Positions 14,101 through 57,827 of a stretch of DNA of 64,000 nt are shown piece after piece. Position 1 is the first letter of the stretch. The number at the start of each line of letters is the position of its first letter. A program made the translations under genes and the position numbers. The notes under the pieces are model-generated. The model saw only the letters and a list, made by a program, of their open reading frames with translations, was not told where the DNA came from and searched no databases. This DNA is from Terriglobia bacterium. GTDB lineage: Bacteria; Acidobacteriota; Terriglobia; JAIQFV01. The stretch spans positions 14,544 to 78,543 of the forward strand of contig JAQUPQ010000014.1 in assembly GCA_028716525.1 (NCBI GenBank), given 5' to 3'.

Positions 14101-15069
14101 ATGAAGGCGATTCAAATTAAGAAAACCGGCGGTTCTGAGGTTCTGGAATATGGCGAAGTCAGCAATCCCTTGCCGGGGGCAGGCGAAGCCCTGGTGAAGA
14201 TTGAAGCCATTGGAGTGAATTTTATCGATGTGTACCACCGCACGGGGCTTTATCCGCTGCCCCTGCCTTTTACGCCCGGCTCGGAAGCGGCCGGTCGCGT
14301 GGCCGCCGTCGGACCGGGTGTGACCGAAGTAAAAGAAGGCGACCGCGTGGCTTACGCCATGGCCCGCGGCGCCTATGCGGAATATGCCTGTGTGCCGGTA
14401 AGGCAGCTGGTAACGGTTCCCAATGAAATTGATTCGCGGACCGCCGCGGCCACCATGCTTCAGGGCATGACGGCACATTACCTGTTGAAGTCGACGTATC
14501 CCGTGAAATCAGGCGAGACACTTTTGATTCATGCCGCAGCCGGAGGGGTGGGCTTGCTGGTGTGCCAAATAGGAAAAAAGTTGGGGGCGCGTGTTATTGG
14601 AACCACATCCACGGCGGAGAAAGCCGCCTTGGCGCGTCAAGCCGGCGCCGATGAGGTGATTCTTTACTCCACACAGGATTTTGAATCGGAAGTGAAGCGT
14701 CTTACCGATGGCAAAGGAGTTCAGGTGGTTTATGACTCCGTGGGTCGCGATACCTATCTCAAAAGTCTAAACTGTCTGGCGCCCCGGGGAATGCTGGTGA
14801 TGTTCGGTCAGTCCAGCGGCGCCGTGGGATCGTTCGATCCGCTGCTTCTCTCGCAACATGGTTCCCTGTTTCTGACACGGCCTTCGCTGGCTCATTACAC
14901 CGCCAATGCGGAAGAGTTGCGCTGGCGCGCCGGCGAGCTTTTTGAATGGATCAAATCAGGGGCTCTAAAAATCAGGATCGATCGCACTTATCCGCTGCGC
15001 GATGCCGCTCAGGCCCATCGCGATTTGGAGGCGCGAAAAACTGCGGGGAAGGTGTTGTTGATTCCGTAA
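14101..15069 (+). CDS. qor: NADPH:quinone oxidoreductase (zeta-crystallin/MDR family).
   Basis: The sequence reads MKAIQIKKTGGSEVLEYGEVSNPLPGAGEALVKIEAIGVNFIDVYHRTGLYPLP and includes the Rossmann motif AAAGGVGLLVCQIGK. Confidence 0.8.
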   Translation: MKAIQIKKTGGSEVLEYGEVSNPLPGAGEALVKIEAIGVNFIDVYHRTGLYPLPLPFTPGSEAAGRVAAVGPGVTEVKEGDRVAYAMARGAYAEYACVPVRQLVTVPNEIDSRTAAATMLQGMTAHYLLKSTYPVKSGETLLIHAAAGGVGLLVCQIGKKLGARVIGTTSTAEKAALARQAGADEVILYSTQDFESEVKRLTDGKGVQVVYDSVGRDTYLKSLNCLAPRGMLVMFGQSSGAVGSFDPLLLSQHGSLFLTRPSLAHYTANAEELRWRAGELFEWIKSGALKIRIDRTYPLRDAAQAHRDLEARKTAGKVLLIP

Positions 15070-54359: not shown

Positions 54360-54388
54360 CACCATCCCCTCAAAGTGTCAGTCACACA

Positions 54389-54558
54389 TCAAACAAGGGT
54401 AGTGACTCATTTTGAATGGGGTGGCGCACACATGCGCTCCAGGCATGTGTGCGGAGTCCCCCTTGTTGATGTACGCACGCATCGTCCGCCACGGCGGCCG
54501 ATGTATGCGCCACCCAGAGGTGAAAAAGAATTCAAAATGAGTCACTACCCAAACAAGC
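54389..54558. mobile_element. Miniature inverted-repeat element (about 150 bp) with 19-20 bp terminal inverted repeats, flanked by an 8-bp direct repeat CAAACAAG (a putative target-site duplication).
   Basis: The left end is CAAACAAG|GGTAGTGACTCATTTTGAA and the right end is TTCAAAATGAGTCACTACC|CAAACAAG. The interior carries nested palindromes (GCGCACACATGCGC...GCATGTGTGCG) and has no coding capacity. Confidence 0.55.
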
Positions 54559-54981
54559 AATCGATTTTCAGGTACACTCTTTTAATCTGTCATGTCGTTA
54601 CACGGGTGAGGTCATTGACCGGTTATTTTTACTGTGCTAGCATGCGGGTGTTCTTCTATCTTACACACAACGAGATGGTTGGCGAAGGGAATGCCGGTTT
54701 CAGGGTGATCATCCCCTAGCGTCGTGGCAGCAGCACGAACAGCAATTCGATAGTGCCACGGGGATGATTTTTCAAGTGGCTTTGAAGATTATTACCGCCA
54801 AGCATCTCTGCAGGCGCAACGCAGGGCGCGATATTGCCTCGAGGCGCCAATTCTGGTGCTTCACGTTTACTACAACGTCCCCGCGGTCTACAACCTGGAA
54901 TCAATAAGAAAATTCACCACAGAAGAACGGGCGTCGGAGCCGGCTGCGGATCTGCCGTGAGCGAAGGTGAGGAATCATGCT

Positions 54982-55110
54982 TAACATCGGCACGAAGCTG
55001 GGACCGTACGTGATTGAGCTGTTTTGGCGGCGTCCGAGCCGCCAGGCGAAATTCCCCGTGAGGAGATCAGGTGGTGGCTCGGCGAAGGTGAGGAATTATG
55101 CTTAACATCG
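54982..55110 (+). other. Decoy upstream ORF of 42 codons. It is created by a 58-bp duplication of the kinase ribosome-binding site, ATG and first 16 codons. Its TAA stop overlaps the authentic kinase start (ATGCTTAA).
   Basis: Copy 1 (54962-55019) and copy 2 (55082-55139) differ at 4 of 58 positions. The upstream ORF encodes [42 protein letters not shown]. Confidence 0.4.
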
Positions 55111-57827
55111 GCACAAAACTCGGACCGTACGTGATTGAGTCATCTCTGGGCGCCGGCGGGATGGGGGAAGTCTATCGCGCCCGCGATACGCGACTGGATC
55201 GTACCGTCGCCATAAAGGTTCTGCCCGACCACCTGGCGGCGACCCCGGAATTGCGCCAGCGCTTTGAGCGCGAAGCCCGGTCCATCTCGGCACTCAATCA
55301 TGCCCACATCTGCGTTCTACACGATGTGGGCTCTCAAGACGGCATGGATTTCCTGGTCATGGAGTACCTCGAAGGAGAAACACTGGCCACACGACTGGCT
55401 AAGGGAGCCTTGCCCCTCGAACAGGCGTTAAAGATTGGCATCGATATTGCCGACGCACTGGACAAAGCCCATCGCGCCGGCATCACCCATCGCGATTTGA
55501 AGCCGGGTAACATCATGCTCACCAAGAGCGGAGCAAAACTTTTGGATTTTGGCTTGGCCAAATCTGCCGTCATGAGGACAGGGACATCGGGGACAGCACC
55601 GCTGCTGAGCGCTGCCCTGACGATGACTTCGCCGAGCCCGCAGGTCTCTCCTTTGACTACGGCCGGAACGATTGTGGGCACTATTCAGTACATGTCGCCG
55701 GAGCAAATCGAAGGCAAAGAGGCGGATGGCCGCAGCGATATTTTTGCCTTGGGAGTTGTGCTTTACGAGATGGCCACCGGCAAGCGCGCCTTTGAGGGAA
55801 AGTCACAGATCTCGGTGGCCTCTGCCATTTTAGAAAAAGATCCGGAGCCGATCAGCAGTTCTCAGCCTTCGGCGCCGCCGGCTTTGGATCGCGTCGTACA
55901 AACCTGTTTGGCCAAAGATCCCGATGAGCGCTTTCAAACAGCCCACGATCTGAAATTGCAATTGAGTTGGATTACGGAAGGAGGTCCGGCTTCCGGTGCT
56001 GCACAACCGGTGAGGCTCGACTGGCCGGTGCGGCGTAAGGCTCTTTGGGCTGGAGGCGCCTTGGTGGTTGTTCTATTGGCTGCATTCGGCGGGACCTTTC
56101 TCGTGCCCAAACCGAATGCCCCCACGGTCCGGGCGATCATTGAGCCGCCCGAAAATCTGACCATCGACTCCACGGGTGATTACAGCGGCCCGCCGGTTCT
56201 TTCGCCTCAGGGCGACAAAATCGTCTTCTGTGCCCACGGACGTAACAGTCCCAAGGAGTTGTGGGTGAGGTCTATGAACAGCTTCTCCAGCCAGCGACTG
56301 GAGGGTACGGAGGGCGCCTACGACCCGTTTTGGTCACCCGACGGAAGTTCCATCGGGTTCTTCAACAACGGCAAACTCGATCGCATTCCGGTGAACGGCG
56401 GCCCCGTAACGGTGGTGACCGACGCGCCCAACGCCCGAGGCGGGACCTGGGGCCCCGGCGATGTTATTTTGATGGCACCGGACATCCAAGGGCCCATCTT
56501 CCGAGTGGGTGCGGATGGCGGCAAACCGACCGCCGTGACGCAATTGGATGTCAGCAAGCATACGACACATCGATGGCCGACTCTCTTGCCGGACGGCAAG
56601 CATTTCCTTTATCTGGCCACAAATCATAATGGAGGCAAGCTGGAAGAGAACGGCATCTATTTTGCTTCGCTGGATGGAAAAGAAAACCGCTTGCTTGTGG
56701 CTACCGATGGAGACGGGGAATATGCTTCCGGCTACCTGCTGTTTCATTCCGGAACAGAGTTGATGGCCCAGCCATTCGACCCCGGCTCCGGCAAACTCTC
56801 CGGCGAACCCTCGCCATTGGTCGGAAGGATTCGCCAGGATTCCGGCGTGTGGCGTACGTTATTTACAGTTTCGCAGAACGGCCTGCTTATTTACGAACCC
56901 GGCGCCGCTGAAACAGCGGGATCACAATTGGTCTGGTTTGACCGCAACGGTAAGCAGTTGGGTCAAGTCGGGGAACGGGGATCGTACATGGATCCTCGTC
57001 TTTCACCCGACGGCAAGCGTTTGGCCGTGAGCTTCGGCGATCCGCAACGCGAGATATGGATTTTCGGCCTGGATCGCGGAACAAAAACTCGTCTGACGTT
57101 CAGTCAAGCGGCGAGCGGGACCAAGGTGGAGCCGGCCTGGTCGCCCGACGGCAGGACCGTTGCTTATTCAACCTCTCTCTCATCGCCCGGGGGCAACAAT
57201 ACGGCGATTGTCAGCAAGGCTGCCAGCGGCAACGGTGGTGAAGAAATTCTGGAAGAACGGCGGGGGAACTCCTTGAGCGGATATCGCTACCCGTCCTGGT
57301 CGCCGAATGGACAATACTTCGTCTACGTGGTCTCGAACGGACCCAGCGGAGCCGCGATTTACGCGAAGCCGACCAGCGGGAACGGCCAACCCATTGAGGT
57401 CGTGCGGCCCACTGCGCCCCAAGCCAACATTGGTTTTTATCGCATCTCACCGAACAACCGCTGGGTCGCCTACACCTCCGATGAATCGGGACGCACCGAA
57501 GTGTATATCGCACCCTTCCCGCATGGTGACGGCAAGTGGCAGGTCTCGACGACAGGCGCGGACTTTGCGGCTTGGCGCGGGGATGGTAAGGAAATCTACT
57601 TCAATACCAATGCGGACGAATATACAGCATGCTCCATCACGGAGCAAGGAAGCGATCTCGAAATCGGGACACCCCAGGTGCTTTTCGCAGCCAACACCTC
57701 GGCTTTGGGCGTCGGATATGACGTGACGTCCGACGGCAAGCGCTTTCTCGTCAATCTTGCCGGCGATGAGACTTCTCCACCGCTGCATCTGGTCGTGAAT
57801 TGGCCCGGCGATTTGAAAAGGAAGTAG
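55098..57827 (+). CDS. Ser/Thr protein kinase with a C-terminal TolB-like (PD40/WD40-like) beta-propeller sensor domain.
   Basis: It has Hanks kinase motifs ([34 protein letters not shown]) and a transmembrane segment, followed by repeated SPDG/WSPDG PD40 motifs. Confidence 0.85.

Follow-up and report, generated by a model that had tools for sequence, protein, structure and literature searches.

The locus considered here raises the question of why a bacterial protein kinase gene is preceded by a second copy of its own translational start. The gene lies in a window of 64,000 nucleotides from the metagenome-assembled genome (MAG) of a member of the Terriglobia (Acidobacteriota), corresponding to positions 14,544 to 78,543 of the forward strand of contig JAQUPQ010000014.1 in assembly GCA_028716525.1; unless a locus is named, coordinates are those of the window. 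It extends from 55098 to 57827 on the forward strand and encodes a Ser/Thr protein kinase of 909 amino acids with a PD40/TolB-like β-propeller (kinase 1). An initial annotation, made from the sequence alone, described a duplicated initiation region whose upstream copy opens an open reading frame (ORF) running into the kinase start, and offered termination-reinitiation coupling, a translational attenuator, or a recombination scar between kinase paralogs as possible explanations. From comparison of the sequences involved, it appears that the duplication is probably one instance of an architecture that recurs in association with a small dispersed repeat, here designated element E, a copy of which separates the two copies of the start, and is neither a bespoke attenuator nor a simple scar between paralogs.

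The duplicated segment is a direct repeat of 58 nucleotides, with copies at 54961-55018 and 55082-55139 that are identical at 54 of 58 positions. The duplication of the initiation region was thus confirmed together with its four mismatches, although the repeat begins one nucleotide away from the position first reported, the start-to-start distance is 121 rather than 120 nucleotides, and 14 rather than 16 codons are included. Each copy is composed of 16 nucleotides 5' of an ATG, including the Shine-Dalgarno (SD)-like motif GAAGGTGAGGAA, followed by 14 codons that begin with the ATG. One mismatch is at position −1 relative to the ATG (C/T), and the other three are synonymous changes in third codon positions (ACG/ACA, AAG/AAA, and CTG/CTC). 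The upstream copy (forward strand, ATG at 54977) is truncated after its 14 codons, and its last 5 nucleotides, TTGAG, double as the 5' end of E; TTGAG is found at both ends of the 121-nucleotide unit. The downstream copy (also forward) contains the working SD, the ATG at 55098, and kinase codons 1-14, and the start at 55098 is in agreement with the N termini of 120 homologs. A 33-nucleotide pattern derived from the repeat has two matches in the window, the two copies themselves, and none in 100 shuffled sequences. An independently assembled Logan contig (SRR22315506) is identical across the duplicated start, and the arrangement is therefore not an assembly artifact of one record; a protein 100% identical to kinase 1 is also recorded from a Terriglobia MAG.

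The upstream ORF (uORF) has 42 codons and a TAA stop (54977-55105, forward strand). As had been described, the stop is embedded in the true start: the TAA at 55103-55105 falls within kinase codons 2-3 and occupies positions +6 to +8 relative to the ATG of the kinase (ATGCTTAA). Its SD-like motif and ATG match those of the kinase, with position −1 as the sole difference. After the 14 kinase codons, the uORF continues through E in the frame xTT GAG CTG TTT TGG CGG CGT CCG AGC CGC CAG GCG AAA, giving a peptide with an E-derived portion that includes LFWRRPSRQAKF.

The hairpin that had been noticed between the copies is present at 55026-55043, but it is not an anonymous structure, being the core of E. 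In a short-word BLAST comparison of the spacer with loci retrieved through the neighboring M61 peptidase gene, positions 55014-55052 matched at 37 of 39 nucleotides a locus (L005) that carries the closest relative of the peptidase; the match there lies in a decayed remnant of a kinase 5' end just 5' of the orthologous peptidase gene. The exact 23-mer at 55026-55048 was found in 31 soil-metagenome contigs of the Joint Genome Institute with unrelated flanks. Alignment of the copies defines an element of about 66 nucleotides with two hairpins and the consensus TTGAGCCGTTYTGGCGGCGTCCGAGCCGCCAGGCGAAATCC-YGAGCG..CGARGGAYCTC, in which a sharp 5' boundary (TTGAGCC) is followed by a stem of 11 bp whose loop, GTCCGA, is constant, the linker GCGAAAUCC, and a second hairpin (UCCY...RGGA) with a closing pair that covaries between C-G and U-A at about 1:1. 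The spacer belongs to this family: a covariance model identifies 55012-55073 (forward strand, 52.9 bits, E value 1e-13) as the sole significant copy in the 64-kb window. Its first hairpin has the core GGCGGC, loop GTCCGA, and GCCGCC at 55026-55043, the stem extending to 55024-55046, and the 5' two-thirds of the copy is close to the consensus; hairpin 2 is degenerate (GAAATTCCCCGTGAGGAGATC).

The structure of E is conserved. Among 37 distinct copies, 98.5% of the cells in the alignment are paired and six pairs show compensatory changes, values equaled by none of 500 shuffles, but it should be noted that this statistic was computed on an alignment fitted to the E model, which favors the result. 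In two diverged copies (L078 and L110, 835-900) stem bases are swapped and the loop is kept. When 83 other Acidobacteriota loci, 1.04 Mb in all, were scanned with the covariance model, two copies were located (L005 and L078); the density in the material sampled is about 2-3 copies per Mb, and E occurs in two Acidobacteriota MAGs besides the metagenome contigs. E is a low-copy element of Terriglobia/Acidobacteriota genomes, whose contexts include neighboring tRNA genes, with E in either orientation, a gene 3' end, a position 5' of a promoter, and tandem arrays. One such array (L101, 635-840) has 3.1 head-to-tail copies with a 66-nucleotide period and no spacers. No Rfam family is matched by the window region, by eight loci with intact copies, or by the whole window; the exact sequence of E was not found in the literature searched, in which topical queries (miniature inverted-repeat transposable elements, or MITEs, in Acidobacteria, and tRNA arrays) returned nothing relevant; and a protein search with the six-frame translation of E gave only eight weak matches. 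E is apparently an undescribed repeat family.

The presence of E is linked to duplicated gene ends. For about 15 of 35 copies, significant similarity exists between the left flank and the right, and the left copy ends at the first bases of E; these duplications are 24-68 nucleotides in length and 75-100% identical. Among kinase genes, an upstream copy of the gene's own start was found in six of eight with E, compared with none of 12 without it. The duplicated ends include the 5' ends of PD40-kinase genes (L089, L091, L095/L107, L098, L111, L112, and the window), the 5' end of another ORF (L090 and L109), the 3' end of a gene for a protein with an HNH_repeat domain (L086), and the 3' or 5' portions of genes for tRNAs of five identities. 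In one array of tRNA genes (L093, 3990-4135), a tRNA-Lys(UUU) gene is broken by E immediately after the anticodon loop, with 8 nucleotides replaced, no duplication, and no intact copy following; in two related arrays (L106, 5238-5409, and L085, 1470-1690) an intact tRNA-Lys gene comes after the same junction. In the explanation that we propose, the two 58-nucleotide copies of the window flank a single E in the manner that appears typical of the family, with E between a truncated gene end, flush with its 5' end, and an intact gene. At the PD40-kinase loci, the truncated copy retains its start codon and so gives rise to a short ORF that crosses E and terminates on or next to the authentic start codon.

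The position of the uORF stop is likewise recurrent. A TGA stop is present in just one of the three frames of E, and in seven of nine ORF contexts the truncated ORF crosses E in an open frame and terminates between −4 and +8 nucleotides of the downstream start: at +6 in the window, at +5 in L091, L111, and L112 (xTGyTGA), at −4 in L090, and at −3 in L109 and L095. Two of these seven cases belong to a gene that does not encode a kinase. Junction variants that differ by 36 or 66 nucleotides preserve the frame, and a variant that differs by 7 (the L095 type) is read in the other open frame, its variant of E having a stop that again abuts the start. In canonical copies of E, the SD-like sequence GAGGGA is located in the 3' arm of hairpin 2, where AUCCC pairs with GGGAU. 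Of the mechanisms initially suggested, termination-reinitiation coupling is therefore the one whose geometry is real and recurs, in seven of nine E-linked ORF loci, with the coupling as such being deduced from that geometry. The uORF and kinase are probably translationally coupled and the uORF is probably a by-product of E; ribosomes translating the uORF would unwind E and terminate at the kinase start, so that translation of the kinase would be coupled to the insertion, or would tolerate it. The arrangement resembles the ATGA and TGATG overlaps of translationally coupled genes in that the uORF has its own SD and a stop within a few nucleotides of the next start (TGATG in L098, ATGCTTAA in the window) and in that the downstream SD-like motif of canonical E copies is held in a hairpin that would be opened by a ribosome arriving from upstream. 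It differs in that the upstream ORF is no separate gene, being made up of a shortened copy of the downstream gene's own start joined to a repeat element.

Evidence on the history of the locus comes from related kinases and from the junctions between kinase genes and E. Kinase 1 has no relative closer than about 71% amino acid identity in 5.8 billion protein clusters, and comparison of orthologs is uninformative at close range, the nearest relatives being about 70% identical. The initial annotation held that absence of the duplication from close relatives, without compensatory conservation, would favor a scar. In three relatives at about 70% (L002-L004) there is no synteny, shared upstream sequence, duplication, uORF, or E; the databases searched contain no closer relative of kinase 1, and the geometry is present in seven of nine E-linked ORF contexts, the window included. 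A degenerate DNA pattern for the N terminus of the kinase had no matches in 185,579 species-representative genomes. Synteny around the M61 peptidase was examined in 80 loci, and flanking kinases were present only in L006 (38-43% identical). In L005, the kinase itself is gone from the position beside the closest relative of the peptidase, and the place of kinase 1 (2700-2960) is occupied by a remnant of about 260 nucleotides with several partial copies of kinase codons ~5-36, E among them.

The kinases linked to E in metagenome contigs include one group with 83-88% identity in the kinase domain, and L095 and L097 share 86% identity; between the two groups, identity is about 70%. Kinase 3 of the window groups with them, and kinase 1 falls outside this clade. 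These relationships indicate that the order of truncated end, E, and gene has long persisted by vertical descent. The junctions of the kinase genes with E are found after codon 25, 22, 13, or 1, and all could be derived from the codon 25 junction by deletions between short direct repeats, a pattern that the window junction fits (ATTGAG / gTTGAG). The junction after codon 14 in the window may accordingly have been formed through this microhomology. Kinase 1 is the first of three genes with Pkinase and PD40 (TolB-like) domains between 55098 and 63999. Kinases 1 and 2 are members of one subfamily and kinase 3 of another, yet the N termini of all three conform to (M/V)(L/V)NIGT (LNIGT or VNIGT), a start found in only one of 120 homologs of the family; kinase 1 begins MLNIGT, whereas its nearest relatives begin MPLANGT. 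The sharing of these atypical N termini across subfamilies suggests that local gene conversion has exchanged 5' ends within the cluster, and points to the transfer of 5' ends, together with E, among paralogs by recombination.

Beyond the association itself, we tentatively suggest, as a possibility that is far from assured, that E is a new small mobile element aimed at conserved gene ends, such as the region encoding the kinase glycine loop or the loops of tRNAs, and that it is self-healing, in the sense that the target end would be duplicated, an intact gene rebuilt downstream, and ribosomes handed by the truncated ORF to the rebuilt start; or else that its invariant 40-nucleotide hairpin module is a site for a recombinase, a nuclease, or an RNA-binding protein. 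Candidate routes for spread and duplication would be a recombinase crossover at the junction of x and TTGAGCC, rolling-circle transduction, and homology-driven copying between paralogs. Comparison with known elements shows partial likenesses. Like MITEs, repetitive extragenic palindromic (REP) sequences, and the hairpin-forming REP doublets (REPINs), E is small, non-coding, hairpin-forming, and dispersed in highly similar copies, with occasional tandem arrays. Unlike MITEs, it has no terminal inverted repeats, its 5' end (TTGAGCCG) and its 3' end (GGAYCTC) not being inverted copies, and in place of a short fixed target-site duplication its flanks have either none or duplications of gene ends of 24-68 nucleotides and of variable age. 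REP and REPIN sequences number tens to hundreds per genome and are accompanied by a REP-associated tyrosine transposase (RAYT), whereas E is low-copy and no RAYT partner was identified in the loci whose neighbors were examined. A closer parallel in target choice is with integrative elements that use tRNA genes as attachment sites for tyrosine integrases; junctions of E are in the regions of the T-loop, anticodon loop, or D-loop, with an intact gene on one side of E and a partial copy on the other, but only ~66-130 nucleotides of non-coding DNA separate the copies, the 5' ends of protein genes are also hit, and there is no linked integrase.

In its ends, E resembles the palindrome-associated transposable elements (PATEs) of the IS200/IS605 group and IS91-type rolling-circle elements: a subterminal hairpin lies close to either end, the 5' boundary is sharp and does not vary, the 3' boundary is fuzzy and bears variable extra sequence, GAAC or GAAG frequently closes the left flank, and tandem multimers occur. 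It lacks the strict tetra- or pentanucleotide target of IS200/IS605 PATEs, since its left flanks end in GAAG, GAAC, GAGG, AAAG, AATG, CATC, and TAAT; for both types, the long flanking duplications are unexpected, and none of the copies of E whose neighbors were examined had an HUH transposase nearby. Rickettsia palindromic elements are also small palindromic repeats within or at the edge of coding sequences that are translated within an ORF, as is predicted for E, but E adds nothing to the functional protein, and the intact gene restarts downstream of it. Three other identifications were considered and rejected. The sequence GTTGAGC at the 5' boundary fits the GTTRRRY motif of integron attC sites, but there is no complementary RYYYAAC in E. 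The two copies of the start do not form the template and variable repeats of a diversity-generating retroelement, the differences being C/T, G/A, G/A, and G/C at the 5' end and the neighboring genes being those for an ABC transporter, a YjbR-family protein, and the M61 peptidase. An apparent in-frame insertion of E in a long ORF (L113) was set aside, since the ORF translation appears spurious by eye.

With respect to partner genes, no Y1 transposase was seen among the neighbors of E that were examined, of which only a few ORFs were scanned with Pfam. Clustering of the ORFs of 31 metagenome loci gave as recurrent families only the kinases and a gene with the HNH_repeat domain (PF18780) and a conserved C-terminal region, which lies within 0.5 kb of E in five loci (L094, 9083-10165; L110, 1757-2695; L086, 884-2272; L103; and L108). 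As an obligate partner of E this gene was rejected, four independently retrieved loci of homologs being without E. The family is large in Terriglobia (1878 matches at E values ≤1e-10) and has two PF18780 modules; its C-terminal domain (..PDCEA..IEFE.ESRNF..H.HD..CD.I.CW.HNW) appears, by eye, to resemble a PD-(D/E)xK-type nuclease. The promoter of the gene is followed by a conserved non-coding block (CCGAGAGCGGCGTCGGCGGG...). Matches to the Acido-Lenti-1 RNA (RF01687) adjoin loci of the family in L110 (693-738, 57.8 bits) and L119 (3862-3908, 33.5 bits). In L116/L118 (1004-1447), a Y1_Tnp gene of IS200/IS605 or RAYT type and an IS481-type transposase gene are near an HNH_repeat homolog, and E is not present there.

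Several observations weigh against the proposed explanation. No transposase or recombinase partner for E was found in the loci examined, and about half of the copies are without a flanking duplication. The copies were collected by an exact 23-mer, and their apparent conservation is in part a matter of ascertainment. The E-linked metagenome kinases form one clade, and the seven of nine coupled cases are therefore not independent events; within the clade, moreover, the stop-at-start geometry has been lost in L089 and L098. In the window itself, the predicted folding of the leader is no stronger than that of shuffled sequence (z −0.22), and kinase 1 keeps its own SD while hairpin 2 is degenerate, from which it follows that coupling is not required there.

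The alternative that survives best is that E is not mobile but acts in cis as a conserved operator, at the RNA or DNA level, and has been passed on by vertical inheritance with the genes that it precedes, and that the arrangement in the window arose by local tandem duplication between two TTGAG pentamers, one at the 5' end of E and the other in kinase codons 13-14. This is consistent with the finding that the E-linked kinases group as a clade whose kinase domains are 70-88% identical, yet the first 40 nucleotides of E are nearly invariant among them, with the presence in L005 of the junction type and hairpin 2 variant of L095 and L097, and with the pentamers at the ends of the 121-nucleotide unit. 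A further point in its favor is the sequence GGCGTCGGAGCCG at 54930-54942 (forward strand), just 5' of the truncated copy, which matches the core of E at 12 of 13 positions; its score was reached by three of 500 shuffles, the covariance model gives it 6.5 bits (E value 4.4), and it may conceivably be the remnant of an older copy of E. A recent tandem duplication, however, predicts a 93% identical E 5' of the left copy, where merely these 13 nucleotides are recognizable, and duplication of the whole 121-nucleotide unit was rejected for this reason. Moreover, the contexts of E, which comprise tRNA genes of five identities, either orientation, a gene 3' end, a position 5' of a promoter, and arrays, fit no single regulatory role, and kinase 1 is not in the E-linked clade. 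On balance the operator is doubtful.

It is decidedly improbable that the uORF evolved for the purpose of regulating the kinase, as a leader-peptide attenuator or a decoy, with the duplication having been selected to that end. The uORF does have the same SD as the kinase and a stop that overlaps the kinase start, all three coding differences are synonymous (P about 0.015-0.06), and in the window copy the 3' arm of hairpin 1 has alternative pairings, in that CAGGTGGTGGCTCGG at 55068-55082 (forward strand) is complementary to 55034-55046; this pairing is specific to the window copy and does not cover the SD. On the other side, there is no terminator-like site, which together with the folding result leaves a classical attenuator unsupported; the nearest relatives of kinase 1 lack the arrangement; the peptide after codon 14 is E read in one frame, as it is in unrelated genes; and tRNA genes, for which translation is irrelevant, show the same architecture. 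That the duplication is simply a scar, left when nearly identical 5' ends of kinase paralogs underwent recombination or gene conversion, with the hairpin incidental, is hardly tenable, since the three clustered kinases do share their rare N termini across two subfamilies but the upstream copy is far nearer to the start of kinase 1 (93%) than to those of kinases 2 and 3 (67-79%), the spacer is a member of a conserved repeat family and not paralog or intergenic sequence, and upstream copies of a start occur only with E.

The genes surrounding kinase 1 are, on the upstream side, those for an ABC transporter and a YjbR-family protein, and, on the 3' side, that for the M61 peptidase, which separates kinases 1 and 2, followed by the other two kinases. 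The intergenic region of 738 nucleotides 5' of kinase 1 contains one match to a σ70-like promoter (54615-54643), located 5' of both copies of the start, and a classical MITE. The latter, in the segment 54389-54558, is 154 nucleotides long (54397-54550), is bounded by perfect terminal inverted repeats of 21 bp (GGGTAGTGACTCATTTTGAAT), and is flanked on both sides by an 8-bp target duplication (CAAACAAG). The Logan contig stops inside the MITE, in line with its being a repeated element. An ORF for 114 amino acids that spans the MITE (54375-54719) is unlikely to be a gene, and Pfam contains nothing that matches it.

If the explanation based on E is correct, the odd duplication in a single MAG leads to a conserved, structured repeat family in the Acidobacteria, a dominant soil phylum that is genetically poorly studied. 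The order of truncated end, E, and intact gene would then suggest a means by which genes that are essential or useful can tolerate insertions. The E loci would provide a natural series of arrangements of uORF, hairpin, and start for the study of translational coupling, and they would also carry a warning for annotation, in that short ORFs and N-terminal extensions at such loci are derived from the element.

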